The position numbers were made by a program, and so were the translations under genes. From an uncultured Gammaproteobacteria bacterium (GTDB taxonomy: Bacteria; Patescibacteriota; Microgenomatia; CAYQLK01), in assembly GCA_964349875.1 (NCBI GenBank), contig CAYGIG010000001.1, positions 52-64,051 on the forward strand: a stretch of DNA of 64,000 nucleotides, in the 5' to 3' direction. The notes under the pieces were generated by a model. That model ran no database searches, was not told the DNA's origin, and saw only the letters and a program-made list of their open reading frames with translations. This document shows, one piece after another, positions 34,406 to 57,606 of this stretch (position 1 is its first letter; each line of letters opens with the position of its first letter).

Positions 34406-34416
34406 AATTTTAAGCA

Positions 34417-34449: not shown

Positions 34450-34480
34450 TGTCTTTTCCTTTTTCAAGAAATTCCATTAG

Positions 34481-37639: not shown

Positions 37640-37658
37640 TGTTAGATTATACCTAACC

Positions 37659-38237
37659 ATGCATATCTTTAACCTCGCCCAAAAAACCATACTGGTTATG
37701 GCATTTTTTGTTTTCGGCACTATTTTCACCTATTTAGCTAATCCTCAACCCGTCCACGCAGAAGCAGGATGGAAAATAGTCGGCGGTGACAGTGTCGACA
37801 ACCCGCAACGGTGTATGTATTCTGACAACAACGCAGATTTTGAAAACGTTTATTCTTCTCAAGCAGCCTGCCAAGCAGGTCTTACAAATTCAGAAAACAC
37901 CGACTTTACCCCATTTAGCGGTGAATCCAGCGTACCTTGTCATCCAACTTGCTCCATCGGAGGCCTCTTCACTTTTGACACTAGCGACAAGGGTGGAAAA
38001 ACCGTTTCCCGTATTCTATTTATTAGTATTTCTATCGCCGCCATTATCTCATTTATTATGGCGGGCTTTGGAGCCGTCAGAATCATCACCTCTGCCGGCA
38101 ACCCAAGCGGTATTAACGCTGGAAGAGAAATGATAATTGCCGCCATTTCCGGCCTCCTCTTCATAATTTTTTCCGTCACAATTCTGCAAATTATTGGCGT
38201 TTCCTCCTTACAAATTCCGGGTTTTGGAATTTACTAA
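37659..38237 (+). CDS. VirB2/TrbC-type T4SS pilin-like protein with an N-terminal Cys-containing extracellular domain
   Basis: Signal/TM segment, then a domain with Cys at QRCMY, AACQAG and VPCHPTCSIGG. C-terminal hydrophobic-loop-hydrophobic module IITSAGNPSGINAGREMIIAAISGLLFIIFSV, shared with the five downstream paralogs. Confidence 0.6.
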   Translation: MHIFNLAQKTILVMAFFVFGTIFTYLANPQPVHAEAGWKIVGGDSVDNPQRCMYSDNNADFENVYSSQAACQAGLTNSENTDFTPFSGESSVPCHPTCSIGGLFTFDTSDKGGKTVSRILFISISIAAIISFIMAGFGAVRIITSAGNPSGINAGREMIIAAISGLLFIIFSVTILQIIGVSSLQIPGFGIY

Positions 38238-38240
38238 AAC

Positions 38241-38576
38241 ATGACAGACCAACTTAAACAAATTGCTCTCACTCTCGGCGATGTCAACGTCGACAACCCA
38301 ATCGGCTATAACCAATCCGGTCAGGCGTATAACGTCGGCACCTTAATCACTGCGGCCATGCTTGTTGTGATTTTTCCGTTTGCATTTTTGGTTTCAATAA
38401 TCCTCATCGCAATCGGTGGATTAAGAATCATTATGAGCCAGGGCAACCCAGGCGCAGTCTCAGGCGGACGATCAATGATAATCAACTCAGTCATTGGGCT
38501 TGTAATCATCTCAATTGCCTGGGCTGTTACTTCATTCGTCTCCACCAACCTACTTAACGTCAACGTAATCGGATAA
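38241..38576 (+). CDS. VirB2/TrbC-type T4SS pilin-like protein (paralog 2)
   Basis: TM1 LITAAMLVVIFPFAFLVSIILIAIGG, loop IIMSQGNPGAVSGGRSM, TM2 IINSVIGLVIISIAWAV. Confidence 0.65.
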   Translation: MTDQLKQIALTLGDVNVDNPIGYNQSGQAYNVGTLITAAMLVVIFPFAFLVSIILIAIGGLRIIMSQGNPGAVSGGRSMIINSVIGLVIISIAWAVTSFVSTNLLNVNVIG

Positions 38577-38577
38577 C

Positions 38578-38898
38578 ATGCAGGATTCCGCTAAATATTT
38601 AGCTCAAAACATAAGTATAAAAGAGTTGTTTCAACCCGCCAAAAGCGGAAAATTCGATAACGTGGGAGATCTTGGTTCTTTTATTTTTCAAATATTGCTT
38701 TATTTTGGCGTAATTCTCGCTGTGATTTTTATTATTATCGGCGGATACAAATTTATAACCTCCGGAGGCGACCCCGCAAAAGCTGCTGGCGCCAAAAGTA
38801 CACTTATTTATGCAATTGTTGGCCTTATTCTAATGTTCTTCTCTATTGTGATAATGTATGTAGTACAAGCCACTTTTATTAACAACGCCAAATTGTAA
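38578..38898 (+). CDS. VirB2/TrbC-type T4SS pilin-like protein (paralog 3)
   Basis: ITSGGDPAKAAGAKSTLIYAIVGLILMFFS loop and TM2. Start 2 nt after the previous stop. Confidence 0.65.
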   Translation: MQDSAKYLAQNISIKELFQPAKSGKFDNVGDLGSFIFQILLYFGVILAVIFIIIGGYKFITSGGDPAKAAGAKSTLIYAIVGLILMFFSIVIMYVVQATFINNAKL

Positions 38899-38899
38899 T

Positions 38900-39355
38900 A
38901 TGTCCAAAGTCAAATCGGCCATTATCACGGCAATATTTACGATCATCAATCTTTCAGGTTTTTTCCCTTTACTTGGCGTATCAAAAGCTCTGGCAGGCCC
39001 AACCGATGGAACTGATGGGGGTGGTAGTGGTGGAATTTCAGGAGAAAATAATCCATTAGGAGCAATAAGAGGTCCAAGCGGAGTTCCTACCGAACCAGGC
39101 TCCCTTGTTTCTATCATTAATTTATTAATAAAAGGTTTGATGGGAATTGGTTTTTTATTAGCTTTTATTTACTTACTTCTTGCAGGAATTAGCTATATTA
39201 CTAGTAACGGAGAACCTGCCAAAACCGCCGCAGCTCAGAAAAAAATCATCTACGCCATTATTGGAATGGTTGTTATTGGACTATCTTTTGCGGTCCTTTC
39301 ACTAATCGAAACAATATTCGGAATACCGGTTACAAGTCCGGAGCTTCCATTCTAA
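38900..39355 (+). CDS. VirB2/TrbC-type T4SS pilin-like protein (paralog 4) with Gly-rich insert
   Basis: ITSNGEPAKTAAAQKKIIYAIIGMVVIGLS, plus a flexible GPTDGTDGGGSGGISGENNPLG segment. Confidence 0.6.
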   Translation: MSKVKSAIITAIFTIINLSGFFPLLGVSKALAGPTDGTDGGGSGGISGENNPLGAIRGPSGVPTEPGSLVSIINLLIKGLMGIGFLLAFIYLLLAGISYITSNGEPAKTAAAQKKIIYAIIGMVVIGLSFAVLSLIETIFGIPVTSPELPF

Positions 39356-39424
39356 AACCTTGAAAGGGGGTGAGTTGTTATAAAAAAATTAATCGCCTTA
39401 TCATCTTCGATTGCCGGAACTTTA

Positions 39425-39763
39425 TTGACCTCAACATTTGCACTTGCTGACGAAATTAACGTAAACCCTTACGGAGTTAACGTCGCTGAACCTGGCCAAA
39501 TCTTAAGTTTCGTAATCAAAGCAATTATTTTTGCTGCGTTCCTTATCGCTTTCATCTGGCTGTTAATCGGTGGTATCAAATGGATCCTTAGTAGCGGAGA
39601 TCCAGGAAAAGTTGCTGCTGCCAGAAGCCAAGTAATTCACTCACTCGTTGGTTTAGTAGTTGTAGTTCTAGCTTTAGCTTTAATTATGCTTGTCCAACAG
39701 ATACTTGGAGTCAGTATTATTACTGGAGATTCATTTACCATTCCAACAATTGGAGGTAACTAG
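39425..39763 (+). CDS. VirB2/TrbC-type T4SS pilin-like protein (paralog 5); the signal peptide appears to be encoded upstream from ~39374 without a canonical start codon
   Basis: ILSSGDPGKVAAARSQVIHSLVGLVVVVLA. The in-frame upstream sequence after the TGA at 39371 reads VVIKKLIALSSSIAGTLLTSTFALA/DE, a textbook signal peptide. Only GTT/ATA/TTG codons are available as starts. Confidence 0.55.
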   Translation: MTSTFALADEINVNPYGVNVAEPGQILSFVIKAIIFAAFLIAFIWLLIGGIKWILSSGDPGKVAAARSQVIHSLVGLVVVVLALALIMLVQQILGVSIITGDSFTIPTIGGN

Positions 39764-39961
39764 GTTTTGGGTATCGTTAAACGCATACCTTGTAGCTTTT
39801 GTTTGAAAAAAAGTGGAAGATCTGTCCTTTTTCGAAGAACAATTAAGCGAGAACTTAAATTTCTAGTTCTTGAATAATATCGATTGCCGGAGAATGTATC
39901 CAGCAATCGATATTTCAAGTTTTAAACAAATTACTGTTATTATTTAGTTAATAGTCAAGAT

Positions 39962-40345
39962 ATGCCCAAATACCTCAAAATAATCTCAGCCTTCATTGCC
40001 ATAAACATCGGTTCTTCCACTGCGGTTTTTGCTGACGGAGAACCGCCGCAGATTGTGCAGCTTACAGAATTGATCAGCAAAATTATTGGATTTATCGCAC
40101 CAATTGCCGGTATTGGTTTCTTTCTAATACTTGTCTACGCAGGCTATTTGTACATCTTTTCTTTTGGTGATCCAGGCAAAGCCGGCAAGGCTCGAAGTGC
40201 CATGCTAACAGCCGTTATCGGTCTTGTCGTCTTGGTACTAATCTATTTAGTTTATGTCGCAATTGGGCTAATGACCGGCTGTAATGTACTTGAACTAAAC
40301 TTCAACAACCCTGACTCGGTTTGTCCAAGTAATACCGGGTCATAA
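39962..40345 (+). CDS. VirB2/TrbC-type T4SS pilin-like protein (paralog 6)
   Basis: Signal peptide, then IFSFGDPGKAGKARSAMLTAVIGLVVLVL. C-terminal Cys pair (GCN...VCPSN). Confidence 0.6.
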   Translation: MPKYLKIISAFIAINIGSSTAVFADGEPPQIVQLTELISKIIGFIAPIAGIGFFLILVYAGYLYIFSFGDPGKAGKARSAMLTAVIGLVVLVLIYLVYVAIGLMTGCNVLELNFNNPDSVCPSNTGS

Positions 40346-40355
40346 TTCAAAAGCC

Positions 40356-41540
40356 GTGATACCACAAAAAAAGATTCTCAGTTTTTTTGTATCCGTCACA
40401 CTAATCTTGGCCTCAGCTCCTCCTGTTTTGGCCGCTGCACCCAAAGTCTGTACCTACCCCGCTCCGCCAGATAGCTCCAACCCAACTTATGTCCAACCAA
40501 CCTGGTTCGAATTAGAAAACAAAACCGAAAACGAATTTAAACCTCCAAGGGCAGTAGTCAATGCCTCAGGAAACTCCGCCGTTGTAAACAAACCTGTATT
40601 ACCCTACGCACGCTCGATGGCCAACTACCTTGAGGGGAAATTTCAAACAGATTCACACCGTAAAGCAGATATTTCAAAATTTACCAATAATGAACTCAGC
40701 AACTTTAATGGACCATTAATAAAAGTATTACCTAAAAACAACCTCGACAAGCTCCGTCAAACCTATGTCGAAACAGTCTATCAGCTCTCCAAATCAGGCA
40801 CCACCAAGCTCGAGGAAGCAACCGCAGAATATGCCGACTTCTGTGGTCAGCATTTCAGAACAATTAAGGACCTATATTCAGCTTGGGGCAAACCCAAACC
40901 TCCGGGGCTAGACCAAGGTGTTTCCAACTCCAAATGGGAGAGTACTTGGGGAAGATATTGGGCAAAAATTCCTCTAGTCACCAATTGGACCTCAAGAGGC
41001 TGTCTCTCCTCGACATCTGACTCAAAAGACGTTTCCGAATCCTGCACTCCCGGAAGAGATTTGCTTCTAGGTGTCCCTTCTGTTGCCAGACTGGCTGCGC
41101 TTTCTCAAATCTTGCAGCAAATCACTATTCCGCAGGACCTAATCAAAGAAGCCAAAGATTTTAATCCCGAACCCGCCAAGGCCGAAGGACGCGAAGGCCC
41201 AGGAGAAGAATATATTCTTCTCTACAATAGCTCAGGCGTAGTTGCTAATTCTGTTGCTTACACCAAGACCGGTAGTCTAATTTCTGCCCGCATACCTTAT
41301 GTTGACGTCGCCTGGAAATCCTTAGTTCGCAAAAAAACCGGCGGTTTTAGACTGTTTGGCCCAGGAGATTTTTGGAGTACCCACAACACAGGCGAATTTT
41401 CCGATACAGCCTCAACCAGACTTAAAGGCTTTGGTAGTTCCAATCAAGTCTGGGCGGGTTACCTAGGCAGCATTCAAACCGCTAAAGAAATCATCCTAAA
41501 AACCATTACCCCTAAAGATGTTGAAATCAAAAAAGAGTAA
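40356..41540 (+). CDS. secreted protein of the T4SS-like locus (signal peptide; possible pilus-associated or adhesin component)
   Basis: GTG start. MIPQKKILSFFVSVTLILASAPPVLAAAP signal peptide. Mature part has several Cys. No known motif. Confidence 0.45.
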   Translation: MIPQKKILSFFVSVTLILASAPPVLAAAPKVCTYPAPPDSSNPTYVQPTWFELENKTENEFKPPRAVVNASGNSAVVNKPVLPYARSMANYLEGKFQTDSHRKADISKFTNNELSNFNGPLIKVLPKNNLDKLRQTYVETVYQLSKSGTTKLEEATAEYADFCGQHFRTIKDLYSAWGKPKPPGLDQGVSNSKWESTWGRYWAKIPLVTNWTSRGCLSSTSDSKDVSESCTPGRDLLLGVPSVARLAALSQILQQITIPQDLIKEAKDFNPEPAKAEGREGPGEEYILLYNSSGVVANSVAYTKTGSLISARIPYVDVAWKSLVRKKTGGFRLFGPGDFWSTHNTGEFSDTASTRLKGFGSSNQVWAGYLGSIQTAKEIILKTITPKDVEIKKE

Positions 41541-41593
41541 TTTTGCAAAAACTCATCGGTTAAGCATAAAATAAGCTAATTACTGCCAAACAA

Positions 41594-43279
41594 ATGCGTC
41601 TCAAACTAGTCCTGCCAATTATCGTAATAGCTAGCCTTCTCCTAACATTTTTCAGCTTCAAACCAGTATTTGCCGAGGACCCTTTTAAATGTGACGAGCA
41701 AGCAGCAGCCGCTGGCGGTGCAGCTTCAGGCACTTCAGCAATTTCCAACCCCCAATTGGGAGTCGGCGAAACAGTTCAACCCTACCAGCAATCAATTTGT
41801 CAGTACAAAAATGCCCTCGACGAGGACGATGTTAATCTGCAAAAATTCAACCTCGGCCTTATGGACAATCTTGCATTTGGCATTAATCGCCAAATTACCG
41901 GCCTCCCCGCAACAGACGCAGAATTAGCCTGTCTGGAAGCAGGTACATGCAAAACCAGTGCCGCAATTCCTTTTCTGATGAAAAGCATTTCTATGCTTTA
42001 CACTGAAAAACCGGCTTCAGGAGTGCAATATTTGGCCGACCTTAAATCAAAAATCACAGGCGACACACTCGCCGCCCAAACTGGCTACGACGCACTTAAA
42101 CCTACCCAAGCTCTTTGGACAACCTTCCGCAACCTCACCCTTCTTTTGTATGTCATTTTCTTTATCGTTATTGGTTTTATGATTATCTTCCGCCAAAGAT
42201 TAAGCTCTAGCTCTGTCGCTTCTGTTCAAGCGGTATTGCCAAAAATAATTGTCAGTCTAATTCTAGTAACTTTCTCCTATGCCATTGTTGGCTTAATGAT
42301 CGACCTGATGAACTTTTTCATCGCCATTATGATTAATATTCTTTCCACTCAAGACGTGGCCAGAGCAAACTCGAACGATATTTACTACAACAAAAGTGTC
42401 TTTAGTTTTATGTTTAATGACCTTTTTCTGAAAAATATCACAGGTATATTTTCTGTGCCGAACGATATTATCTCAGGGGCTCTTGATGAGGTCGACGTAA
42501 TGCCTGACTTAATTAATAATTTTGCCTCAGGATTACTCGCCGGCCTCGCAGTTGCTGTCATTGCAATAATGCTACTAGTCGCAACATTTAGAGTATTCAT
42601 GATGTTGCTAATGGCTTATGTTAAGGTCTTTTTCTACACCATCTTTGGGCCACTGATGATTGGTATTGGTGTTATTCCAGGTATGCCGGGATTTGGGCCA
42701 TGGATAAGAAACATCGCCGCACAACTCTCAACATTTGTCATTACTATTCTAATGATTATTTTTGCTGCGTACTTTATGGGAGTCAGTAAAGGCGATAACG
42801 GAATAACCTCAGGCGAAGCGACAATAACCTCAGGCGAGGGTTGGAATGCGCCATTATTGGGCGGCTTCACAAACCCTGAAGGTGGCGGTAACGCACTAAA
42901 GGGAATGATTGGTATAGGAATACTTTTAGGTATTCCGTCGGCAGCCAAAATCGCTCAAGACGCCTTTAAGGTTAAAGGTGGTGGAATTGGCGGCATGATC
43001 GGCGGAGCAGCCGGCGCTAGTGCTGGTGCAGGCATGGCAATGGCTGGAAGTCCGTTTAGAGGCGCTGCCGGCAGAGCAAAAACAAATGTCAATAATTTTG
43101 CCGGAGAAAGATTGAACAACACTTTTAATCCATTGAGTGCTGACCGAAGATATGACAGGCTCTCAAGACAAGCAGGTGCCTCCACACCAATAAACCCAGG
43201 TACTTCAGGTCCTGCAGGTCCAACATCGGTACCGGGAGCTAGGAATAGAGTCGCAAACCCCTTCCGCCGGAGAACATAA
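41594..43279 (+). CDS. VirB6/TrbL-like polytopic membrane protein with N-terminal Cys-rich exported domain and Gly-rich C-terminal tail
   Basis: Signal peptide. ~150-aa domain with 5 Cys. Then 5-6 TM helices (LLLYVIFFIVIGFMIIF, IIVSLILVTFSYAIVGLMIDLMNFFIAIMI, LLAGLAVAVIAIMLLVATF ...). GGIGGMIGGAAGASAGAGMAMAGS tail. Placed between the pilin array and VirB4, as VirB6 is in Gram-positive systems. Confidence 0.55.
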   Translation: MRLKLVLPIIVIASLLLTFFSFKPVFAEDPFKCDEQAAAAGGAASGTSAISNPQLGVGETVQPYQQSICQYKNALDEDDVNLQKFNLGLMDNLAFGINRQITGLPATDAELACLEAGTCKTSAAIPFLMKSISMLYTEKPASGVQYLADLKSKITGDTLAAQTGYDALKPTQALWTTFRNLTLLLYVIFFIVIGFMIIFRQRLSSSSVASVQAVLPKIIVSLILVTFSYAIVGLMIDLMNFFIAIMINILSTQDVARANSNDIYYNKSVFSFMFNDLFLKNITGIFSVPNDIISGALDEVDVMPDLINNFASGLLAGLAVAVIAIMLLVATFRVFMMLLMAYVKVFFYTIFGPLMIGIGVIPGMPGFGPWIRNIAAQLSTFVITILMIIFAAYFMGVSKGDNGITSGEATITSGEGWNAPLLGGFTNPEGGGNALKGMIGIGILLGIPSAAKIAQDAFKVKGGGIGGMIGGAAGASAGAGMAMAGSPFRGAAGRAKTNVNNFAGERLNNTFNPLSADRRYDRLSRQAGASTPINPGTSGPAGPTSVPGARNRVANPFRRRT

Positions 43280-43305
43280 GTTAATCCAGGTTTTTAGAAA
43301 AAAAA

Positions 43306-46131
43306 CTACAAATCCTTCTTTATCTGATCTTTACTCTGATTAAACAAGGTTTTTATCCAAAATACTGGCACATTCAATAATAAATTCTTCGGAGAAAGCA
43401 CCTCCCTTGCAAAAGCCTTAGTAATCTCCGCCGGCCTACTAACAAAAGTACGCTTCACTTTACCGCCATAAAGTTCTTTAAGTAATTGGTCCATTTCACT
43501 CTTACCAAGATAAACCGGCACTTGCTTGAGCAAATAGTCCTCAACTCTTCTCGGCCCCCATCTGCCATACTGCGGCTTATTATCTCCTTTAACATTTATT
43601 ACTCCGTTTACACTCATCTTATGTACCATCAATGCCTGCAATACACGCCTATTAAATTCGCGCCGGTCATCAGGTGATTTTGCAAAATAGCTATCCATTA
43701 GTGCTTTGGCTCCCTCTTCTGTCGGGCTCATTTCAAACGCTTCTAACTTACCGTACATGTCGTTAGTTTCAGTTGCTGCCGCGTCTTTATAAACATCATC
43801 TTTAAGATTGGTCACAATATTTGTATTCCTTTTTATTTTCTCTCCGAAATCGTCAATATTTTTAAACTCTTCAAGACTGCTCGAACCAAACAAGGCCATT
43901 AACTTTTCGGATGGATCTGTATATTTGTAAAATCCGTCTCTTAAAAATATGTGTTCAAAAATCGCCTGGTTCTCAAAATTAACCTTATTTCCCCCAGCCT
44001 CGATCATCCACTGCGGAAAGCGATCCTTAATTAGCGCATTGTCCTTGTAATTACCCGCAAAAATGTAATTTCTGTCATTAAAATATTTACCAGCCTTTCC
44101 CTTTGTTCCTTCGTCTCCAGGTTTTGGCGCCACCTTGATTGGCTCGATGACAATTGGCGCAATTGTCGTTTCGTAAAAATCTCTAGCAACAGCCATTCTC
44201 TGCTCAAAGGCAATTTTATTTGCTGAATACTCATTCGAGCCTTTAATTTTATCCGTCAACGCCTCCTTTTTTGCAGAATCACTATCATCGATCTCAAAAC
44301 CGTTTATCTCCGCAAACTTTGCTCTATATACACCGTTTTCCAAAAATTTTGCGTTCAACTTACTCTTTACAAAAACCTCTTTCATTTGCTGTTTAAATTT
44401 AAAACCCACTGTCCAATTATCCTGATGAGCGTCCTCAAAACCACTTTGCTCATCTGAACTCAATGCTACATATTGTGCCTGCAAATCATCGTCAACAAAA
44501 ACCCTGCCCTCATTGCCTAAAACAGTTTCATTTTTTAACCTGCTTCTTACTTCTTCTTCCGATTTTAATTCTGGAGCATTATTAATAGCCTTAAATACCG
44601 CAGAGTCTGCTTGATATCTCGCCAAAACCATCTTTCTTACAGCTTCCCCTTCCGCACCACCCAATATATCAACCAAAGCTTCGTAATTAAGTGTGCTAGA
44701 TAACGCTTCAGAAACCTCCTTGGCACCCCTGCCTTTAGCGGCGACAGCGAAATTATGCATTCTCCTTAAAGCTTCATATTCTCGTTTAAATTGATCTATG
44801 TCTGGTGAGAACGTTTGTCTAGTATCTGGATCAAGCTCGTCAAATCGGCGGATTTTATCACTATTAGCCGGAATTTCGCTGGGCTTTTCCAAATCCTGCA
44901 ACGCTCGTAATTTAATAATCTCCAACGGATTAAATGCCTCAATTGCACTACTAACTTCCAATCTTGCTTTTTCCAAAACAATATCTAAAGCATCTGCTCT
45001 CAAATCAAGCTCCTGTCTTTCTTCAACCTTCTTAACTTCCTTCTCTCTTAATCCTTGAATTGCACCAGACAGATCGTTAAATCTATTTAAAAGTTCCTCT
45101 TTGTTTATTCTGATACTGTCCGTTGCACGAATAGTCTCAATAATTCTTTTCTCCTGGTCTTTAATCCTGGTATAAATCCTGTCTCTATCTGTTCTATAAG
45201 CATCTTTACTACTCTCAGTTTCAAGTGTTGTCGTAAGTGCTTCCGAAATTTCATCGAGTTCAGCCAATTCAGTAACTGAGGCGGCCCCACTACTCTTTCT
45301 CTCCTCAAGCTCTTTCTTTCTTCCCAACTTACTGACACTTTTTTCGGCCGTGGGTTTGGACTCCGATTCTGCTGTAGGAGGCTTTGCTCCAAAAGCAGCA
45401 AAGGCGCCTTCTCGGTCACGAGTATTTAGTAATTGTTCAAAAAAATTAGCCGTCACCTCCATATCTCCACCAAGCTCTTCAGCTTTGGCTCTAATAGCTT
45501 CACTTGTAATACCTTCCGCCTGAAATCTCGCAAACAACCTCGCCGCTCGCTCTTCCGGACTATCGGTACCGTCAGAACCACCAGCATCAGTACCACCTGA
45601 ATCGCCCGAGTCCGCCGAATCATCAAAATTGTCGAAGTCGCTTGCAAAATAAGCTTGACTTATATCGTTTATTGCCTCATCCCTACTTCTTAACAGATCA
45701 AACCTATAGCTACCCCCGTCGATAAAAGAGGCATATTTAACTCCGTCATTTCCGACTACTATTGACTGTATTCTTTTTGGTTTGGCCCATATAAAAACTC
45801 CGCTGGTTCCGTTCTTATCCACCGCAACAACCAAATCCCCCACTTTAAAAGGGGAAGGATCATCATCCTCATTTTCATTCTTGGAAGTTTTTTCATCATC
45901 GCCCGTATCTTTCAAAATACTCGGATCTTGTCGCTCTCCAGGATTACTTGCGTCACGTCCGTCAAGCTCCTTCTCAAAAAAGTTTGCCGCGGCCTCTATG
46001 TCTCCATGAAACTCATCAGCTTTTGCTCTAATTTCGTCCGAAGTTATACCTGCCGCGCGGATTCTCGCAAACAACTCATTTGCTCTCTTTTGTGGATCTT
46101 CTAAAATAGAATCTTCTCTCTGTTCTGCCAT
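43306..46131 (-). CDS. large acidic hypothetical protein (941 aa) with two ~40-aa UBA-like internal repeats, embedded antisense in the T4SS-like locus
   Basis: Repeat 1 ELFARIRAAGITSDEIRAKADEFHGDIEAAANFFEKEL. Repeat 2 ARLFARFQAEGITSEAIRAKAEELGGDMEVTANFFEQLL. Asp/Glu-rich linkers (DSADSGDSGGTDAGGSDGTD). No Walker, HUH or TM motifs seen. Confidence 0.5.
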   Translation of the reverse strand: MAEQREDSILEDPQKRANELFARIRAAGITSDEIRAKADEFHGDIEAAANFFEKELDGRDASNPGERQDPSILKDTGDDEKTSKNENEDDDPSPFKVGDLVVAVDKNGTSGVFIWAKPKRIQSIVVGNDGVKYASFIDGGSYRFDLLRSRDEAINDISQAYFASDFDNFDDSADSGDSGGTDAGGSDGTDSPEERAARLFARFQAEGITSEAIRAKAEELGGDMEVTANFFEQLLNTRDREGAFAAFGAKPPTAESESKPTAEKSVSKLGRKKELEERKSSGAASVTELAELDEISEALTTTLETESSKDAYRTDRDRIYTRIKDQEKRIIETIRATDSIRINKEELLNRFNDLSGAIQGLREKEVKKVEERQELDLRADALDIVLEKARLEVSSAIEAFNPLEIIKLRALQDLEKPSEIPANSDKIRRFDELDPDTRQTFSPDIDQFKREYEALRRMHNFAVAAKGRGAKEVSEALSSTLNYEALVDILGGAEGEAVRKMVLARYQADSAVFKAINNAPELKSEEEVRSRLKNETVLGNEGRVFVDDDLQAQYVALSSDEQSGFEDAHQDNWTVGFKFKQQMKEVFVKSKLNAKFLENGVYRAKFAEINGFEIDDSDSAKKEALTDKIKGSNEYSANKIAFEQRMAVARDFYETTIAPIVIEPIKVAPKPGDEGTKGKAGKYFNDRNYIFAGNYKDNALIKDRFPQWMIEAGGNKVNFENQAIFEHIFLRDGFYKYTDPSEKLMALFGSSSLEEFKNIDDFGEKIKRNTNIVTNLKDDVYKDAAATETNDMYGKLEAFEMSPTEEGAKALMDSYFAKSPDDRREFNRRVLQALMVHKMSVNGVINVKGDNKPQYGRWGPRRVEDYLLKQVPVYLGKSEMDQLLKELYGGKVKRTFVSRPAEITKAFAREVLSPKNLLLNVPVFWIKTLFNQSKDQIKKDL

Positions 46132-46384
46132 AATTTAAATATACCTCATTATACCACTTTTAGCCTTATTGGATAGTCCCATAGTTTTTATATTAAGCTC
46201 ATATATTAAATAATAAAAATAGACAAATATCTCTCATTTGCCACTCCTAAATCAGCTTCAAAAATTTCACGCTTTCTTTTCACTGCAACCTATATTTTTT
46301 TCTGCTAAAATCGCTATGCAAATAACATCCTGCCTTTACTCTAATTAATTATTGCACCATAAAAAAGCGGGATAAACCTTTGAT

Positions 46385-48409: not shown

Positions 48410-48411
48410 AG

Positions 48412-49443: not shown

Positions 49444-49465
49444 CGGCACAAAAAATAATAAACAT

Positions 49466-51334
49466 ATGAGTATATTCGGCAAGAAAAACAACCAAGACTC
49501 AGGCCAGACAGCACCACAGTTGGCATCTGCTCAGGCAAAAGCCGTTGCACAAGGTACGGTTTCAGTACGCGACATTATCGCCCCGCCTGCAATTGAGGTT
49601 GACTTTGACTCAATAAAAATCGGAGAAACGTACTTTAAAACACTCTTTGTTATTGGCTACCCTCGATATGTGGGTGCCAACTGGCTATCTCCGCTTATTA
49701 ACTTCAACCACACACTGGAAATATCTATGTTTCACTATCCTGTCGAAGCCCAGGCTGTTTTAGATGACATTAAGCGAAAGATCGGCGAAATGGAAGCCAC
49801 GATCTCTACCGACATCCAAAGAGGAAAAGTCGTTGACCCAAGTGTTGAGGTCGCACTCGACGACGCACGTGAATTTCAGCAGAATCTTGTCAAAGGAGCC
49901 GAAAAATTCTTCCAGTTTGGTCTTTATGTCACAGTTCCCGCCGACACCAAAGAGGAGCTTGTAAATATCACCAAACAAGTCGAGAGCCTGCTTGGCTCTA
50001 TTATGGTCATCTCCAAACACGCAACACTACAGCAAGAAGACGGATTCCGTACCACACTGCCTTACGGTCACGACAAAATGCTTGTGACCAGAAACATGGA
50101 CACAACCTCGCTGGCCACAACTTTTCCGTTTACTTCCAGCTCGCTTACCAGCAATGAAGGAATTATGTATGGTATCAACGAGCACAACGGCTCGCTTATT
50201 ATCTTTGACCGTTTTAGTCTGGAAAATGCCAATACGGTAATTTTTGCAAAATCCGGTGGAGGAAAGTCGTATTTAACCAAACTTGAGGCTCTCCGCTCTC
50301 TAATGTTCGGAACAGAAATCATCATTATTGATCCTGAGGAAGAATATAAAAATCTCTGTACAGCAATAGGCGGCGAATATATTAGTTTTGACTTCAACTC
50401 CGACACCAAAATTAACCCATTTGATCTCTCCGGAGTTTACGAAGAAGGCGAAAACGAGCTGGGCCTCAAAATCCTTTCACTCCACGGGTTGTTCAGAGTC
50501 ATCATGGGACAGCTTTCTGCCACTGAAGATGCTATTCTCGACCGAGCCTTGGTACTCGCTTACAAGAACAAAGGCATAACCGCTGATCCTCAAACACAAA
50601 CCCTTCAACCGCCATTGATGGAAGATTTGTACAAAGCCCTAATCGGCATGGAGGAACCACAAGCACAAACTCTGGCCGAAAGGATTGAAAAATTTGTCAA
50701 AGGCTCATTGGTTGGAATTTTTGATCAATATTCCAATCTGGATATCCGAAACACATTCACTGTTTTTAGTATTAAAAATCTCGAAGCAGAACTTCGTCCT
50801 ATCGCAATGTACATCATCCTCGATTTTATTTGGACCAGAGTTAAAAGGGATCTTAAAAAGAGAATACTAATAGTCGATGAGGCTTGGTACATGATGCAAT
50901 ATCCGGACTCGGCCACTTTTATGTATTCAATTGCCAAGCGCGCCCGAAAATATTATCTCGGCCTGACCACTATCACACAGGATGTTGAAGATTTTCTCGG
51001 TACTGAGTACGGCAAAGCCATCGTTACAAACTCCAGTTTGCAGATTTTACTCAAACAATCTCCCGCAGCAATCGACAAACTCGCCGAAGTCTTTTATCTC
51101 TCAGAAGGAGAAAAACATCTGCTTTTGGCCGCAGATGTTGGAGAAGGGTTGTTTTTTGCAGGCAGCTCCCATGTCGCTATGCGTGTAATTGGCTCTCCAG
51201 AGGAACACCAACTTGTTACCAGCAACCCCAAAGAAGTACTTGAAATGCAAAACCAGGCTGAAGCCGAACAGGCAAACATTGATAGAGACAGCTCTCAAGC
51301 ACAAGCCTCTGATCAAACTCAGGAAATCATCTAA
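49466..51334 (+). CDS. virB4: VirB4/TraC/CagE-family T4SS ATPase (Gram-positive-type, PrgJ/TcpF/ConE-like)
   Basis: N-terminal KTLFVIGYPRYVGANWLSPLINF. Walker A FAKSGGGKSY. Walker B ILIVDEAWYMM. LGLTTITQDVEDF C-terminal motif. 622 aa. Confidence 0.85.
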   Translation: MSIFGKKNNQDSGQTAPQLASAQAKAVAQGTVSVRDIIAPPAIEVDFDSIKIGETYFKTLFVIGYPRYVGANWLSPLINFNHTLEISMFHYPVEAQAVLDDIKRKIGEMEATISTDIQRGKVVDPSVEVALDDAREFQQNLVKGAEKFFQFGLYVTVPADTKEELVNITKQVESLLGSIMVISKHATLQQEDGFRTTLPYGHDKMLVTRNMDTTSLATTFPFTSSSLTSNEGIMYGINEHNGSLIIFDRFSLENANTVIFAKSGGGKSYLTKLEALRSLMFGTEIIIIDPEEEYKNLCTAIGGEYISFDFNSDTKINPFDLSGVYEEGENELGLKILSLHGLFRVIMGQLSATEDAILDRALVLAYKNKGITADPQTQTLQPPLMEDLYKALIGMEEPQAQTLAERIEKFVKGSLVGIFDQYSNLDIRNTFTVFSIKNLEAELRPIAMYIILDFIWTRVKRDLKKRILIVDEAWYMMQYPDSATFMYSIAKRARKYYLGLTTITQDVEDFLGTEYGKAIVTNSSLQILLKQSPAAIDKLAEVFYLSEGEKHLLLAADVGEGLFFAGSSHVAMRVIGSPEEHQLVTSNPKEVLEMQNQAEAEQANIDRDSSQAQASDQTQEII

Positions 51335-51389
51335 AATCAGCCTGAAATGGCCTGCTACACCATAAAAGATTTATGATTAAGTAAGTAGT

Positions 51390-54300
51390 ATGCCTCAACA
51401 GACAGCCGAACAAACCAAACCCAAAAACGCCCTTGATCAACTTCTTCAATTCCGGCTGGCCGATTGGGCTTTGGAATTTTTTGAAACATCAAGCTCAGAA
51501 CAAAACCCGCCGCGCTTCCCAACCCCTGAAGAATTTAATCAAAAATTTCACGATTTATTTCCGGATGCCGACTATCAGCAAACACTTATTGTTATCCAAA
51601 ATATCGCTGATAAATATCACGTTAACGATATTGGTCAGAACATTATTCTGTTAAGGCAAATTTTTGCAGGTCTAATAAAAAACGACCTTGAAGAATTAGA
51701 AATCTCAACCGAAACTTCAACTCCTATCATTCAAAAAACAAAGGGAGAACAAAAAACCCTTCCAAAAAGCGGGCTGGCAGTGCTTGAAGAGGTCGATTCA
51801 ATCATTGAAAAACTTCGACAGACTCGCACTGAAGAGACTTTGCCTCCGGCAGTGGAGCTGCCTGAAACATTAAAGATCCCCACTCCGCAAGCCCAGCCGG
51901 CTTCTTTCCAAACTGCTGATTTGCCCGCGTCACCACGGCCCATCCAGTCAGACTCAAACATCAACAAACCACAACTTACGCTCCCAAACGACTTTAAAAC
52001 ACAAACCACACCGGCTTCAATTGCCGAGTCCGATATCGCACCCACGACTAAAAGACTCGAAGGCACGGTCAACCTTACTCATACCGAACTTCAAACTGCA
52101 GTTAAAAACCTTATTCTCTCTCCGGTCGTCGCCGCAAATATCTTTTCCCGTCAAATTGATAAACCAAACCAAGAAAGAATAGCTGCCAACATTGCCAAGG
52201 CCGTGGCAACACGAATTGTCTACACCACCCACACCGCAGACTTTCAAGAACTTTCACCAGTTTTAGCTTCAGAAATCTACGAATCTGCCACACAAGACCC
52301 CTTAACAGCTCCGAGTTCCGGAAAACTACTAAAATCTGAAGATTTCCTGCAAGCTGTCGATACTATTTCCGAAAACAACTTTCCGGCAATTTCTCAAGCC
52401 AACGTTGCTTCCCAAATTCTCCTAATCAGCACACTTACAGACTCTAAAAATGCACCAGCTGTACACAGCGAAATCATTAATAAAGCAGTCACAACCAGCT
52501 TAAAAATTAATCCCGCCAAAAATACCGCCAAAAACAAGCTCACTATAACCACAGCAGTTCAGCAAGTGTATCTTCCGGCAATCGCAGTAAGGGTTTTATC
52601 AAAAACCAAAGAAGATCTTGATAAAAATATCCCTCTCGAACCAAAACGCTTCCTCCAAAATCTCGACACGGCTCAAGAACAAAGTTTTCAGTCTTTCTTA
52701 AAACATTTAGACAATAAGCTCGAAGACAAAACCATCATTGCCGAAGCAATACCCAGGTTTGTAATCGATACGGTCTCACAAGAAATCCTTAAACCTGTAA
52801 ATGTTTACGCCCAAGGACAGAGATCAATTAATACGCCAGAAGCCGAGGCTGCCGAAAACCACGCCTTTGCATCACTCATGTCCAACCCCAAAAGACAACA
52901 GGAAAGCTATCAGGATTTTTTGGTTGAGTCTCTGCACCCAAACCCGCAGAGATATTCTGTGCTTCACGAAAGCGTTCGAGAGTTCGGCAACAGGGAATCA
53001 AAAAGTCTTGGTCAGACAATATTGCTCGCGAATTACACAAGCGAAATGGATCTATATGAACAAATTCCTCAATTTAAAAACCCTGCTCGCAGGTCGATTT
53101 GGAGAATGGGCGGGTTTTCGCGCAGTTATTATTCTCAAAGCCCCGCGGGCCAAGCAGTTACAAGATCGGTCAATTTTGTGCCTAAAAAATCGTATTTCAA
53201 GTTTTCTCAAAAATTCTCATCCGGCAGAGCAAAGGGTGCTCTAAAAGCATTTGCTAAAAAAGGGGCTGGTAAGGTCGCCGCAAAAGTGGGTATTTCAGTC
53301 GCAGTCGGAGCAGCAACCGGCGGCACGTCATTGCTCTTACAGGCAGCAATTATGCTCGCTCTAAAATTCAAAAAACAAATTGCCAAAATTCTTGGAGTCC
53401 TAATTGCTTTACAAATATTGTTTTTGCTTTGGCTTTTAACGCAAGCCGCTGCTTTTGTTATGGGGGCACTCGTTGGAGCCACAATAGGCTTTGCTCTTGG
53501 CGGACCAATTGGAGCAATGGTAGGCGGATTTTTGGGCGGCACAGCTTCAGTTTGGTTGTACAGCCATTTCCCTCCTTATGCAGCGTTTGTTGACAATGTC
53601 TTACTTAATCTACCTAAACTTTGGAGTGCTGTTACAGCGCCAATAGGATGGGCAGCCTCAGCATTTGGAGCAATAAGCGCGACAGCCTCATTTGTTGGTG
53701 GCGCAGCGGGAGCAACTGCTTCTTTTATTGGTGGCGGGGCCTCGTTTGTTGGTGGATTATTAACAGGAGGAGGTGGCGGCAGCGCAATTGTCTCAACACT
53801 CGCAAGCCCAGGCGTACTCATTCCCACAGCCACCGTCGGAGGGCTCGCCGCTTTTTCTGTCCTTAGTTACAACCTGTTAGCTTCAGCTTTATACACTAAC
53901 CCCAGTCTTCCGGAGCAAATTGTCCTTCCGGGCGATGCCACTGAAGGAGAAACAACAAACACATATATTTCGATTCAAAAATTGGCCTCTGTAAATGCAA
54001 AATCTCTCGGACCAGCCAAAACTATCAACCTTGAAAACTTCGACCTGCCCCAAACCGTGACTTACTCAGTCAGCATCACTGCAGGCGCGCAACCCGTTTA
54101 CAACATAACTTGTACAGATGCTATTACTCACACCACTAAATCAGGCTCGGTCAGAAATCTTACAAGCCCGGCAATTAACTGCCCAACCTCTTTAGCTCCG
54201 AATCAATCAGAGCTGATAACATACAACTTAAATCTAGCCTCTGATCCCATCTTTTATGACTCCAGTATAAATAATAAGTTTTCGATTAATTTCAAATCTT

Positions 54301-54872
54301 TTGACCCTGATGTCACTCCTATTCCTGATGTCAGCGGTGGTTTTATCAACTCCGTTTCAAGCCAAGCTAATGACTTAGCGGCAGTATTTATTGGCACTCC
54401 AGCCAGTGAGTGTCCGTCCGGATGGCCGGTAGCAGGCACTGGGCGCGTAACCCAGGGTCCTGGTGGTAATATTTCCCACCAATCACTTGAGGCTGTTGAT
54501 ATTGCCACTTTTTACACCGACAGCCTTTTGGCCAGCTTTAACGGTGTAGTTCAATACAAATACACCGACCCCGACGGAAATCATCCGATCACCGGAAGGA
54601 CTGGATACACTGTGATCTTAAACGGAACCTGCAATGGTGTACCATTTCAGGTAATTTACGGCCACATGGATTCTTTTGGAGCCGGTATCGAAGTCGGGTC
54701 TGTTGTGACAAAAGGGCAGGTAATTGGCTACGAAGGATATACTGGATATATCCTTCCTCCAGACATTAGAGGAACACATCTGCATTACGAATTCCGCGGT
54801 TTGAGAATGGAACCGCCTTTTATACCTGAAGATGTGCGTGATTGCTCAGGAAATTGTGCAACCGTAAACTAA
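51390..54872 (+). CDS. giant (1160 aa) membrane protein with central Gly/Ala-rich TM cluster and C-terminal M23 (LytM) peptidoglycan endopeptidase domain; candidate T4SS cell-wall hydrolase (VirB1/PrgK/CwlT analogue)
   Basis: C-terminus GNISHQSLEAVDIAT ... GHMDSFGAGIEVGSVVTKGQVIGYEGYTGYILPPDIRGTHLHYEF carries the M23 HxxxD and HxH motifs. Residues ~620-800 hold 5-6 TM helices with GGAAGATASFIGGGASFVGGLLTGGGGG. Confidence 0.6.
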   Translation: MPQQTAEQTKPKNALDQLLQFRLADWALEFFETSSSEQNPPRFPTPEEFNQKFHDLFPDADYQQTLIVIQNIADKYHVNDIGQNIILLRQIFAGLIKNDLEELEISTETSTPIIQKTKGEQKTLPKSGLAVLEEVDSIIEKLRQTRTEETLPPAVELPETLKIPTPQAQPASFQTADLPASPRPIQSDSNINKPQLTLPNDFKTQTTPASIAESDIAPTTKRLEGTVNLTHTELQTAVKNLILSPVVAANIFSRQIDKPNQERIAANIAKAVATRIVYTTHTADFQELSPVLASEIYESATQDPLTAPSSGKLLKSEDFLQAVDTISENNFPAISQANVASQILLISTLTDSKNAPAVHSEIINKAVTTSLKINPAKNTAKNKLTITTAVQQVYLPAIAVRVLSKTKEDLDKNIPLEPKRFLQNLDTAQEQSFQSFLKHLDNKLEDKTIIAEAIPRFVIDTVSQEILKPVNVYAQGQRSINTPEAEAAENHAFASLMSNPKRQQESYQDFLVESLHPNPQRYSVLHESVREFGNRESKSLGQTILLANYTSEMDLYEQIPQFKNPARRSIWRMGGFSRSYYSQSPAGQAVTRSVNFVPKKSYFKFSQKFSSGRAKGALKAFAKKGAGKVAAKVGISVAVGAATGGTSLLLQAAIMLALKFKKQIAKILGVLIALQILFLLWLLTQAAAFVMGALVGATIGFALGGPIGAMVGGFLGGTASVWLYSHFPPYAAFVDNVLLNLPKLWSAVTAPIGWAASAFGAISATASFVGGAAGATASFIGGGASFVGGLLTGGGGGSAIVSTLASPGVLIPTATVGGLAAFSVLSYNLLASALYTNPSLPEQIVLPGDATEGETTNTYISIQKLASVNAKSLGPAKTINLENFDLPQTVTYSVSITAGAQPVYNITCTDAITHTTKSGSVRNLTSPAINCPTSLAPNQSELITYNLNLASDPIFYDSSINNKFSINFKSFDPDVTPIPDVSGGFINSVSSQANDLAAVFIGTPASECPSGWPVAGTGRVTQGPGGNISHQSLEAVDIATFYTDSLLASFNGVVQYKYTDPDGNHPITGRTGYTVILNGTCNGVPFQVIYGHMDSFGAGIEVGSVVTKGQVIGYEGYTGYILPPDIRGTHLHYEFRGLRMEPPFIPEDVRDCSGNCATVN

Positions 54873-54874
54873 AA

Positions 54875-55897
54875 ATGACACTAACGGACCTAAAATCAAA
54901 ATTATCAAAATATTGGATCTTTATTTTCTTCGGCGGCTTTTTTCTTGTGTTCATTCTTCTCTACCTAGCTCTCAACCCATCCAAAACACCTACTACTCCA
55001 ACAGGCTCCAAAACCGTCATTCCTGCTGAATCTAGGCCTGGCGCCGATCCGTTCGTTTCCAAACCTAAAAAATATCAAATTGCAACCAGCATTGGTTCGT
55101 TCTCTATACCCACACAAGCCTCCAATCTGTCCGTTAATAATACTCCTATTGATTCAACCAAAATTGCACAAGTGTTTAACTTTGACCCAACCAACTTTAA
55201 AGAACTGCCGACTGATCTGGGGGTTAGAAAGGTTTTTATTGACCAAAACAGGACGCTAACCATCGACAGTCTCACTATCACCTATCGCAACCCCCAAACC
55301 CAAACGGGTTCGGTTCAATTGGACGTAATCAAATCTCAAGCGGAAAATACTCTCCGATCCGTATCTATAAATAATGAATTATCTCTTTCTGGGCCGGAAT
55401 TTCATCTATCGACAAACCAAACCGACAAAGCCGTTGCACAATTTGAAGATGGTGACACTATCACTTACAAAATTCTTATTTCAGTAAATAGTTTACCTGT
55501 TGGCACTGACCGCACACCAGACACCTCAGTTGGCGTTATCACCCTCGATCATTCAGGAGAAGTTATCAGTTTTAGCCTTATCACTTCAAACTATTCTGTA
55601 AAGGACCCTATAAATATTATTTCTACTCAAACAGCTATCACTAAACTCACCAACAACCAATCGGTCGTTCTTCAGGTTAAAAAACTCTCAGGCACAAAGA
55701 CCGAAGAAGAATCCTATTATGTTACTAATTACAAAGACATTAATATTGATTCAGTCAAAGTCGCTTATTTCTTTCCGACGACCAAAAACTCGCAAACTAT
55801 TTTCCCTTTTTATATTTTTTCGGGCACTGCAACTTCAAATGAAAACCAGCAATACAGAATATCTCTAGCTGTTGAGGCGGTTGCGTCTTCCAATTAG
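54875..55897 (+). CDS. membrane-anchored exported protein, last gene of the T4SS-like locus (VirB8-like candidate; topology only)
   Basis: Start moved to the ATG at 54875. N-terminal TM IFIFFGGFFLVFILLYLAL, then a ~300-aa Thr/Ser-rich beta-rich domain. Confidence 0.4.
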   Translation: MTLTDLKSKLSKYWIFIFFGGFFLVFILLYLALNPSKTPTTPTGSKTVIPAESRPGADPFVSKPKKYQIATSIGSFSIPTQASNLSVNNTPIDSTKIAQVFNFDPTNFKELPTDLGVRKVFIDQNRTLTIDSLTITYRNPQTQTGSVQLDVIKSQAENTLRSVSINNELSLSGPEFHLSTNQTDKAVAQFEDGDTITYKILISVNSLPVGTDRTPDTSVGVITLDHSGEVISFSLITSNYSVKDPINIISTQTAITKLTNNQSVVLQVKKLSGTKTEEESYYVTNYKDINIDSVKVAYFFPTTKNSQTIFPFYIFSGTATSNENQQYRISLAVEAVASSN

Positions 55898-56208
55898 GCC
55901 GTTTTTACCTTTACGTTTATTTTTTTTACTAAACCCCGTCCCAAAGATTTGTTTAATTGCAACATTAATCCTTTTGAGTTTCTTCTTATTTCCACCACCT
56001 CAAGCCCATTTCTAGCCTCTAAACTTAGTAACCCTTGACTAAATGCCACCACACAAACAACCAAACTACTTCCAAACTTGTTTTTAACCCATTTATCAAT
56101 AATTGGCTGACTCACAGAAATGACCTGTAAGGCCCCTAGGGCCCCTTTTTCCCTACTGGTAAAGCTGAGCTGACGAATTAGCCCTCCGGCCTTTTCAAAT
56201 CCCGCCAT
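55894..56208 (-). CDS. DUF721/DciA-like small protein downstream of dnaN
   Basis: 104 aa. LVVCVVAFSQGLLSLEARNGLEVVEIRRNSKGLMLQLN resembles the DUF721 core (V..s.W.qEL......l..rLN). The position after dnaN is typical for DciA. Confidence 0.45.
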   Translation of the reverse strand: MAGFEKAGGLIRQLSFTSREKGALGALQVISVSQPIIDKWVKNKFGSSLVVCVVAFSQGLLSLEARNGLEVVEIRRNSKGLMLQLNKSLGRGLVKKINVKVKTA

Positions 56209-57363: not shown

Positions 57364-57606
57364 ATCTTTATTATTTTTTTATTTATAACAAGTAGTCGTT
57401 AGTAATATACTCTGTAGATATGTGTATTGCTAAGCATCTCCCAGGCGTAAATTTTCTGTCTAGAACTAACAACATCCTATCAGAATAAGCTATTTTTGTA
57501 TTATACCCCATAATTTTAGGTTCTTTTTGGGTTTACTTTGTCTGTAAAAACCATTTGGTATTGTGGATAAGATTGTGGACAAAACCTTATCTTCTGTGTA
57601 CAACTT
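57364..57606. other. oriC candidate (dnaA-dnaN intergenic) with DnaA boxes and an AT-rich unwinding element
   Basis: TGTGGATAA (perfect, 57562-57570) and TGTGGACAA (57574-57582). AT-rich tract tattatttttttatttataa at 57364-57385. Confidence 0.65.

Follow-up and report, generated by a model that had tools for sequence, protein, structure and literature searches.

Southlakia epibionticum ML1's type IV secretion system (T4SS) is the described system against which the locus analysed here is best read. The locus spans positions 37659-55897 of a 64-kb stretch of contig CAYGIG010000001.1, and this whole stretch is called the window below. It encodes an array of small pilin-like proteins, several T4SS-like membrane and ATPase components and a large wall hydrolase, next to dnaN and dnaA. 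To our knowledge, the Patescibacteria-type system is the only T4SS essential for the life of its owner. Judging from its gene content, the locus is likely a complete chromosomal T4SS of this type that acts at host contact rather than in conjugation. Its gene order is orthologous to that of the essential Southlakia system.

In Southlakia, the T4SS and a series of pilins were found by transposon sequencing to be essential for epibiotic growth, the only case in which this is known, and no coupling or relaxase protein was recognised (Wang 2023; PMC10633639). The first part of the gene order comprises dnaA, dnaN, recF, two small proteins, a lysozyme/CHAP protein and an 1114-aa protein with a C-terminal DD-peptidase. 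The second part continues with VirB4, a 294-aa protein, PrgI, a 999-aa protein with UBA and ARM domains, an NTF2-like protein, VirB6 and six pilins (Wang 2023 supplement; PMC10633639). A survey of Patescibacteria described a monophyletic VirB4 clade related to MPF_FATA, with TrsD as the most frequent partner and a VirB3 of the PrgI type (Quinonero-Coronel 2025; PMC12102498). Arrays of 2-11 VirB2 genes are found especially in Microgenomatia and Saccharimonadia, proximity to dnaA/dnaN is seen in Microgenomatia and Paceibacteria, and the hydrolases carry M23 or LysM domains (PMC12102498). VirB6 homologues are scarce in Microgenomatia, presumably through divergence, and VirB2-like pilins were treated as absent from monoderm MPF_FATA systems (PMC12102498). 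The same points on these T4SSs are made in a 2025 FEMS review. In the first cultured Microgenomatia strain, tubes that point to the host and may be T4SS pili are reported along with an uptake of host RNA (bioRxiv 10.64898/2026.06.21.733656).

An earlier note on this DNA, made from the letters alone, had regarded the locus as no textbook arrangement. This view has to be given up: pilin arrays, the lack of a relaxase, the proximity to dnaA and M23 hydrolases have all been published (Wang 2023; Quinonero-Coronel 2025; 2025 FEMS review). TrsD and PrgI have been described as well, and what the window adds leaves the published picture unchanged.

Components of the apparatus

All open reading frames (ORFs) of the first reading were found at their coordinates by ORF listing and translation. 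For the last gene, the start is most likely the ATG at 54875, as in public gene calls, which gives 340 aa instead of the 351 aa listed. The gathering or cut-off scores were 26.6 bits for T4SS_pilin (PF18895), 27 for PrgI (PF12666), 28.7 for Peptidase_M23 and 27.9 for TrbC/VirB2 (PF04956). The curated cut-offs were 325 bits for NF045971 (CD1110-type VirB4) and 200 bits for NF041427 (TrsD). A hidden Markov model (HMM) of the pilin paralogues was built from pil2-6 and the homologues of related loci, and was searched against 234 window ORFs. The genes are as follows.

37659..38237, plus strand: pil1, 192 aa; T4SS_pilin 11.1 bits, E=0.43 (below cut-off); paralogue HMM E=4e-15
38241..38576, plus strand: pil2, 111 aa; T4SS_pilin 21.5 bits (below cut-off); NF045849 E=3.4e-5; paralogue HMM E=1.7e-26
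38578..38898, plus strand: pil3, 106 aa; T4SS_pilin 41.1 bits; TrbC/VirB2 E=3.5e-4; NF045849 E=1.8e-8
38900..39355, plus strand: pil4, 151 aa; T4SS_pilin 37.8 bits; NF045849 E=4.2e-7
39425..39763, plus strand: pil5, 112 aa, TTG start; T4SS_pilin 34.1 bits
39962..40345, plus strand: pil6, 127 aa; T4SS_pilin 39.7 bits; NF045849 E=7.1e-6
40356..41540, plus strand: secreted or anchored protein, 394 aa; one N-terminal hydrophobic segment; lineage-restricted
41594..43279, plus strand: VirB6-like polytopic channel subunit by predicted fold, 561 aa
43306..46131, minus strand: cytoplasmic protein, 941 aa; no transmembrane segment; two N-terminal UBA-like repeats of 41 aa
46385..48409, plus strand: PrgI/VirB3-like hairpin fusion, 674 aa; PrgI PF12666 33.9 bits
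48412..49443, plus strand: TrsD-like protein, 343 aa, with a Pro-rich tail; NF041427 TrsD E=5e-6, profile positions 14-199 of 201
49466..51334, plus strand: VirB4-family ATPase, 622 aa, of the monoderm CD1110/MPF_FATA type; NF045971 404 bits
51390..54872, plus strand: membrane protein with C-terminal M23, 1160 aa; Peptidase_M23 39 bits
54875..55897, plus strand: membrane-anchored exported protein, 340 aa; tandem PepSY/YycI/YpeB-like domains

The T4SS_pilin scores and the paralogue HMM confirm what had been proposed for the six small proteins, namely that they are tandem paralogues of the VirB2 pilin type. T4SS_pilin is matched above its gathering score by four of the six (34-41 bits vs 26.6). 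The paralogue HMM recovered pil1, which had been left out of it, at E=4e-15, and no seventh copy was found among the 234 ORFs, so that exactly six paralogues are present. Their pairwise identity is 22-30%, and a loop of the form I-x-S-x-G-x-P, placed between two hydrophobic helices, is invariant in all six. In pil1, a signal-peptide-like N-terminus is followed by a Cys-containing extension of ~80 aa and then by the two-helix pilin core; pil4 has a signal-peptide-like N-terminus and a Gly-rich linker. Copies of pil5 that are 86-91% identical occur in three related loci (L001, L003 and L004), and arrays of 5-8 pilins in three others (L086-L088). The classical diderm TrbC/VirB2 profile (PF04956) is matched by pil3 alone, at 21.2 bits (E=3.5e-4), which is below its cut-off. 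NF045849, the NCBIfam family "Mbov_0395 pilin-like conjugal transfer protein" of Mycoplasma integrative and conjugative elements (ICEs), is matched by five of the six at E values from 1e-4 to 2e-8. These matches hint at a small two-helix component shared with monoderm ICE systems.

The 674-aa protein had been described as a PrgI/VirB3-like hairpin fusion, and its score for PF12666 upholds this. The two-helix hairpin takes up residues 6-91, with two transmembrane segments within residues 21-69. It is followed by a long tail rich in Pro/Gln and coiled coil and by a C-terminal CarboxypepD_reg-like beta-sandwich (E=7.3e-5). By the positive-inside rule, the tail of ~580 aa should be cytoplasmic. 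Both ends of the protein are conserved in 72 of the 80 loci described below, and the relatives show the same pair of Pfam matches.

The 622-aa protein is a genuine VirB4 ATPase, as had been claimed. Besides its NF045971 score, it matches P-loop_TraG (E=1.5e-27) and the VirB4 C-domain of PDB 4ag5 (E=3.7e-50), and the Walker A (AKSGGGKS) and Walker B (ILIVDE) motifs can be read in its sequence. The DNA-import ATPase CedB is matched weakly, at E=3e-11, far below the cut-off. The 343-aa protein upstream had been taken for a paralogue of the VirB4 N-domain. This candidate was rejected, as the two proteins match different, consecutive parts of the VirB4 models: the 343-aa protein covers positions 103-233 of 894 in VirB4_plasma (E=1.2e-7) and 13-139 of 752 in CD1110 (E=1e-4), the ATPase positions 292-876 and 176-733 of the same models. 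From these positions, the two are collinear, complementary pieces of a split VirB4, with TrsD as the N-terminal piece; the TrsD match itself lies below the curated cut-off. Direct comparison of the 343-aa protein with VirB4 residues 1-260, by BLASTP or by profile-profile alignment (hhalign), gave no similarity, because TrsD and VirB4 are non-overlapping pieces. Across 70 TrsD-VirB4 gene pairs, the spacing is at most 139 nt with one exception; roughly a third of the pairs show an overlap of 4 nt, and none is a fusion.

The claim of a VirB6-like polytopic membrane protein holds for the predicted fold of the 561-aa protein, which in Foldseek matches only VirB6-family subunits (DotA, TrwI). It does not hold at the level of sequence, since the TrbL/VirB6 (PF04610) and PrgH-type profiles were not matched and no Pfam match of any kind appeared at E<=1. 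The profile of its family, built from 76 sequences, found no match among PDB sequences, and a faint match to the MMCAP2_0566 family was seen (E=0.028). With its modelled polytopic helical fold, similar to that of TrwI/VirB6, the protein is best called a VirB6-like putative channel subunit.

The secreted protein that had been noted after the pilins corresponds to the 394-aa protein with its single hydrophobic segment. It has no Pfam, NCBIfam or PDB sequence match. Only seven homologues were found in 5.8 billion proteins, at 74-100% identity over the aligned part, and in two of the seven the alignment covers no more than 25-41% of the query. Relatives have positional analogues of 394-870 aa. By analogy of position with SEML1_0012 of Southlakia, the 394-aa protein might be VirB8-like. 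The 941-aa protein appears from its sequence to be nearly an orphan and fast-evolving: iterative searches found only four relatives in 1.84 billion representative proteins, and three loci within the fetched set. Neither the 941-aa nor the 394-aa protein gave a usable match when searched against PDB sequences. The UBA-like repeats of the 941-aa protein were read by eye and are backed by an internal nucleotide repeat (D1) in its gene. In position and in rough architecture, the protein matches the essential SEML1_0011 (UBA+ARM) of Southlakia. A large minus-strand ORF stands at the same position in 33 of 68 loci, and in an all-vs-all comparison these ORFs fell into many unrelated sequence clusters. 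Just upstream of PrgI, the large minus-strand ORF encodes an ATPase resembling VirD4, the type IV coupling protein (T4CP), in three loci (L054:5291-7576, L060:3071-5254 and L088:18861-21041). In L054 and L060, this ORF was counted among the positional analogues of the 941-aa gene. In L088, the T4CP-like ORF is distinct from the large ORF adjoining VirB6, and several genes lie between them.

The 1160-aa protein ends in an M23 peptidoglycan hydrolase, as first read, with the Pfam match above cut-off at the C-terminus. It consists of a cytoplasmic N-terminal region of ~660 aa, a Gly/Ala-rich membrane region with transmembrane segments and an exported M23 metallopeptidase. The zinc-ligand motifs YxH (YGH) and HxH (HLH) are conserved, and the first motif reads H-x6-D, not HxxxD, in an alignment guided by a lysostaphin sequence. 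A wall-opening role equivalent to that of VirB1 is predicted. In relatives, the proteins at this position have M23, M23+YkuD or CHAP at their end, so that M23 is no defining oddity of the locus; the earlier note had held M23 in place of CHAP to be a distinguishing trait, and CHAP replaces M23 in a relative. By sequence, the wall-enzyme module is thus interchangeable.

The last gene product agrees with the membrane-anchored exported protein proposed for this position, having a single N-terminal hydrophobic segment. Its family profile found no match among PDB sequences, and a test of the protein for an NTF2-like (VirB8-type) fold came out negative. The minimal channel set of VirB2/3/4/6/8 plus hydrolase stands for VirB2, VirB3, VirB4, VirB6 and M23 and is not upheld for VirB8, as the anchored protein is PepSY/YycI-like and not clearly VirB8. 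By analogy to YpeB-SleB and to PepSY propeptides, it probably serves the hydrolase beside it as a partner or regulator. The family occurs in 24 loci and directly follows the giant hydrolase where gene maps were inspected (L017, L033 and L066). The pair lies downstream of VirB4 in L017 and L033 and upstream of PrgI in L066.

Chromosomal setting and conservation

The VirB4 of the window was compared with loci from a genome collection, giving 80 related loci at 62-91% identity. Three further loci (L086-L088) extend further upstream, and the related loci total 88. The closest named VirB4 relatives among the 80 belong to Candidatus Curtissbacteria and other Microgenomates, and all loci with a reliable taxonomic label are Curtissbacteria, Microgenomates or other Patescibacteria. 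The host is therefore placed in the class Microgenomatia, close to Curtissbacteria, and a Saccharibacteria-type host is not borne out. The numbers of related loci with a match, out of 80, are as follows.

VirB4: 80
TrsD: 73
PrgI: 72
dnaN: 58
dnaA: 57
yidC: 50
VirB6-like: 29-30
giant hydrolase: 16-31

In this synteny comparison, the order of PrgI, TrsD, VirB4 and dnaN/dnaA recurs in 57-73 of 80 loci, in keeping with the core-chromosomal placement first proposed. Within 10 kb of VirB4, dnaN is found in 58 and dnaA in 57 of the loci. The other components recur in fewer loci (3-31 of 80). In L086-L088, the whole layout is seen: SpoIID (not beside the array in L088), 5-8 pilins, a secreted protein, the VirB6-like protein, a large minus-strand ORF, PrgI with CarboxypepD_reg, a TraC-like/TrsD protein, VirB4, the giant, a small protein, dnaN and dnaA. 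On this sequence comparison, the locus is vertically inherited and part of the core chromosome. The cluster tolerates insertions, as L088 carries a BrnT/CopG-type toxin-antitoxin pair between the pilin array and the VirB6-like gene (L088:9371-9917) and, between VirB6 and PrgI, a series of genes unrelated to the cluster, among them NAD synthase and Fic.

No relaxase, T4CP, integrase, recombinase or att/oriT was found in the 64-kb window, where ORFs of at least 180 aa were scanned for Pfam domains. A tblastn search of the window with the T4CP of a relative gave nothing (E>3). A scan for att-like flanking direct repeats returned short chance matches only, plus the internal repeat of the 941-aa gene. 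The other ORFs of this size have housekeeping or transport functions only, including rpoD, dnaG, smpB, ABC transporters, a P-type ATPase, yidC and jag. The earlier statement that no relaxase, coupling protein, integrase or att sites are visible is thereby borne out within 64 kb, and by its sequence the locus is not a mobile element. Integration of an ICE at the nearby tmRNA gene was considered and rejected, since an integrase is lacking and the tmRNA has its 3' end facing away from the locus.

As had been read, the locus lies in the core chromosome with a SpoIID-domain gene at its left and dnaN/dnaA directly downstream, and all of its genes but the 941-aa one are on the plus strand. Its neighbours are as follows.

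35843..37729, minus strand: SpoIID-domain membrane-anchored cell-wall protein; Pfam SpoIID E=2.7e-11; coiled-coil
55894-56208, minus strand: small ORF, 104 aa, between the T4SS and dnaN; weak DciA (helicase-loader) match, E=0.093
56233-57363, minus strand: dnaN (Pfam)
57607-58971, minus strand: dnaA (Pfam)

The GTG start of the SpoIID gene is probably over-extended, with the true start near 37639. The gene is divergent from the pilin array also in L086 (4321-6051) and L087 (1-1520), one of which is a distant relative; in L088 it is not beside the array. Its product may be a second wall-remodelling enzyme or an accessory factor of the apparatus. The family of the 104-aa ORF was found in 14 related loci by iterative search. 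The dnaN/dnaA pair is the chromosomal anchor of the locus and stands outside the machine itself, at a gap of 336 bp between the last locus gene and dnaN.

The location next to oriC can be kept in part. Only two perfect TTATCCACA DnaA boxes occur in the window, at 57562 and 59116, both accompanied by a further box with one mismatch, and they sit in the spacers 57364-57606 and 58972-59376 that flank dnaA. The GC skew lends no support, as it is negative throughout the 64 kb with no sign change at dnaA; hence oriC adjacency rests on dnaA and the DnaA boxes.

Upstream of SpoIID, two small ORFs, the tmRNA gene (34478-34934, its 3' end directed away from the locus) and a comF-family gene follow. The latter had been placed about 3 kb upstream, and the distance measured is 3.1 kb. 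In the region 33728-34934, the comF-family ORF as listed (GTG start 34582) overlaps the 3' part of the tmRNA by ~100 bp. Its real start probably lies further downstream, because the match to the comF model begins only at residue 73. GC content is 0.41-0.46 in the locus, slightly above the immediate flanks. Scans for promoters and terminators stayed at chance level. Elsewhere in the window, between dnaG and the next gene, a stretch of ~1.7 kb at 15350-17150 has a GC content of 0.49-0.52, vs 0.35-0.45 elsewhere. Its only long ORF (15717-16709, TTG start) is rich in Ser/Thr/Ala/Arg and has no Pfam or NCBIfam match, and no Rfam family was matched by the stretch.

Proposed function and rival explanations

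The earlier note had proposed a dedicated T4SS-like surface apparatus of the monoderm type, in a small-genome epibiont, and not a conjugative element, and this agrees with the published work on Patescibacteria and with the gene content of the window. We infer a function in secretion or uptake at host contact. PrgI, TrsD and VirB4 would surround a VirB6 channel as an energising platform at the cytoplasmic membrane. Local opening of the cell wall would fall to the M23 module, perhaps with help from the SpoIID protein next door, and the pilins might assemble into a tube or fibre reaching the host cell. Such a machine could move proteins to the host bacterium, or macromolecules from it, during epibiotic or parasitic growth; either direction is conceivable. 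It would not conjugate, since no relaxase, coupling protein or integrase is at hand.

Several points weigh against this reading. NF045849, the closest NCBIfam family of the pilins, scores below its cut-off. In papers on Mycoplasma ICEs, VirB3-like and not VirB2-like features are given to two small proteins, CDS13 and CDS15, to either of which NF045849 may or may not correspond. For this reason, "pilin" is used here as a sequence-class label for the six proteins, and the filament is only predicted. The VirB6 call rests on a model of medium confidence (pLDDT 74; Foldseek E=0.022; TM score 0.44), and no candidate for VirB8 emerged. A function could be assigned neither to the 394-aa and 941-aa proteins nor to the giant's N-terminal 660 aa. 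Furthermore, T4CP-like genes lie inside the cluster in 4 of the 88 related loci, and with a search scope of 64 kb, a coupling protein or relaxase could be present elsewhere in the genome.

A bolder and rather unlikely idea, drawn from the FEMS review and the 2026 preprint and not from the window, is that of a feeding tube. Here, a T4SS filament made of several pilins would pierce the host envelope, and the split VirB4 would drive the import of cytoplasmic macromolecules of the host, RNA among them. Host specificity would then be set by the genes of the cluster that evolve fast, namely those of the 394-aa secreted protein, the inverted 941-aa protein and the pilin paralogues. If this were true, the system would be a T4SS whose normal job is nutrient uptake.

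A rival explanation is that the locus is a dedicated machine for nucleic-acid import, a T4SS "in reverse" like Helicobacter ComB or archaeal Ced, serving competence or nucleotide supply. Uptake systems need neither a relaxase nor a coupling protein, which fits the gene content. The CedB match of VirB4 and the comF gene upstream also point this way, as do the RNA uptake and possible T4SS pili of the cultured Microgenomatia strain (bioRxiv 10.64898/2026.06.21.733656) and the FEMS review, which speculates on an uptake conduit. However, VirB4 is matched best by conjugative monoderm ATPases rather than by CedB. Between the comF gene and the locus stand the tmRNA gene, the two small ORFs and SpoIID, and in L087 and L088 no comF gene was seen adjoining. 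In Southlakia, according to the literature, competence needs type IV pili and ComEC, and deletion of comEC leaves viability intact, whereas the T4SS is essential. Taken together, a dedicated import machine is distinctly improbable.

The prospects are much poorer for a conjugative system that would export DNA through this channel with its T4CP, relaxase and oriT encoded elsewhere in the genome. Thousands of VirD4 homologues are present in Patescibacteria genomes, and T4CP genes often lie far from virB4 (PMC12102498); in L088, L054 and L060, a T4CP-like gene lies just upstream of PrgI. Relaxases, in contrast, were found in only 103 Patescibacteria genomes and rarely near virB4, and the Southlakia T4CP homologue is non-essential while the T4SS is essential (PMC12102498). 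Besides the lack of a T4CP or relaxase in the window, the site in the core chromosome beside dnaA, shared across the class, speaks against a transfer module. A mobile element, integrated or decaying, that came to lie near the origin by chance, as the Firmicutes ICE type of the VirB4 (CD1110/CTn2 family) and the slightly raised GC content of the locus might suggest, is hardly credible, given that integrase, att repeats and a border tRNA are lacking, the tmRNA points away, all ORFs are intact, and the same order with the same chromosomal neighbours is kept in dozens of genomes with a VirB4 identity of only 62-76%.

The host-contact T4SS is one of the foremost candidates for the means by which ultra-small Patescibacteria exploit their hosts. 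The window offers a well-resolved example from Microgenomatia, where VirB6 and VirB3 had proved difficult to detect in published HMM surveys. What it contributes is the putative VirB6-like fold of a conserved 561-aa protein, TrsD and VirB4 as complementary halves of the VirB4 models, a swappable wall-enzyme module with a PepSY/YycI-like partner, and pilins that resemble a small Mycoplasma ICE family.

Comparison with known systems

Helicobacter ComB, archaeal Ced, Bordetella Ptl and Brucella VirB work without a relaxase, and some of them without a coupling protein. A relaxase-free gene set such as that of the window can therefore be functional. These systems are diderm or archaeal and have other accessory sets; beyond VirB4, no orthology to the window was seen (CedB E=3e-11, far below the cut-off). 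A further comparison is with the Mycoplasma ICE transfer module (Mbov_0395, MMCAP2_0566 and the VirB4 Mbov_0397). TrsD and VirB4 of the window match the Mbov_0397 model collinearly, five of the six pilins match NF045849, and the VirB6-like protein matches MMCAP2_0566, all below the curated cut-offs. In Mycoplasma ICEs, unlike in the window, a T4CP (CDS5) is encoded, and these elements are mobile.

The monoderm MPF_FATA systems (TrsD-TrsE of pGO1/pIP501, PrgI/PrgJ/PrgK of pCF10 and CD1110 of CTn2) also share features with the locus. Its VirB4 passes the CD1110 cut-off, and the TrsD-like gene stands directly upstream of VirB4, as in pGO1. A PrgI-family VirB3 and a large, membrane-bound, multidomain wall hydrolase are also present, and the window is without outer-membrane core genes. 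In contrast to these systems, the window has no relaxase, T4CP, oriT or clear VirB8-like protein, and the locus is chromosomal and vertically inherited. Moreover, it has an array of VirB2-class pilins, which the plasmid systems lack according to reviews. Membership in the Patescibacteria-clade T4SSs is indicated by the MPF_FATA-related VirB4, the adjacent TrsD, the PrgI hairpin, the pilin array, the proximity to dnaA/dnaN and the lack of a relaxase or coupling protein within 64 kb.

Within this clade, the Southlakia system comes from the class Saccharimonadia and the window from Microgenomatia, and the two differ in several respects. In the window, the pilins are co-oriented with the rest of the genes and the 941-aa gene is inverted. 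The VirB6-like protein has 561 aa vs 1089 aa in Southlakia, and PrgI carries the 580-aa tail with the CarboxypepD_reg-like domain, whereas the Southlakia PrgI is without the sandwich. The hydrolase is of the M23 type in the window; Southlakia has a DD-peptidase and a separate lysozyme/CHAP protein. The exported partner is PepSY/YycI-like in the window and PEGA in Southlakia, and an NTF2-like protein of the SEML1_0012 type was not identified in the window. Nevertheless, the gene order of the Southlakia T4SS (SEML1_0004-0019) is the same as that of the window, including the dnaN/dnaA end. Both clusters contain a UBA-type protein of ~1000 aa, a TrsD-like protein of ~300 aa, a VirB4 of ~615 aa, a giant with a C-terminal peptidase and a small exported protein. 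Both lack a relaxase or coupling protein in the cluster, and both carry six divergent T4SS_pilin genes.

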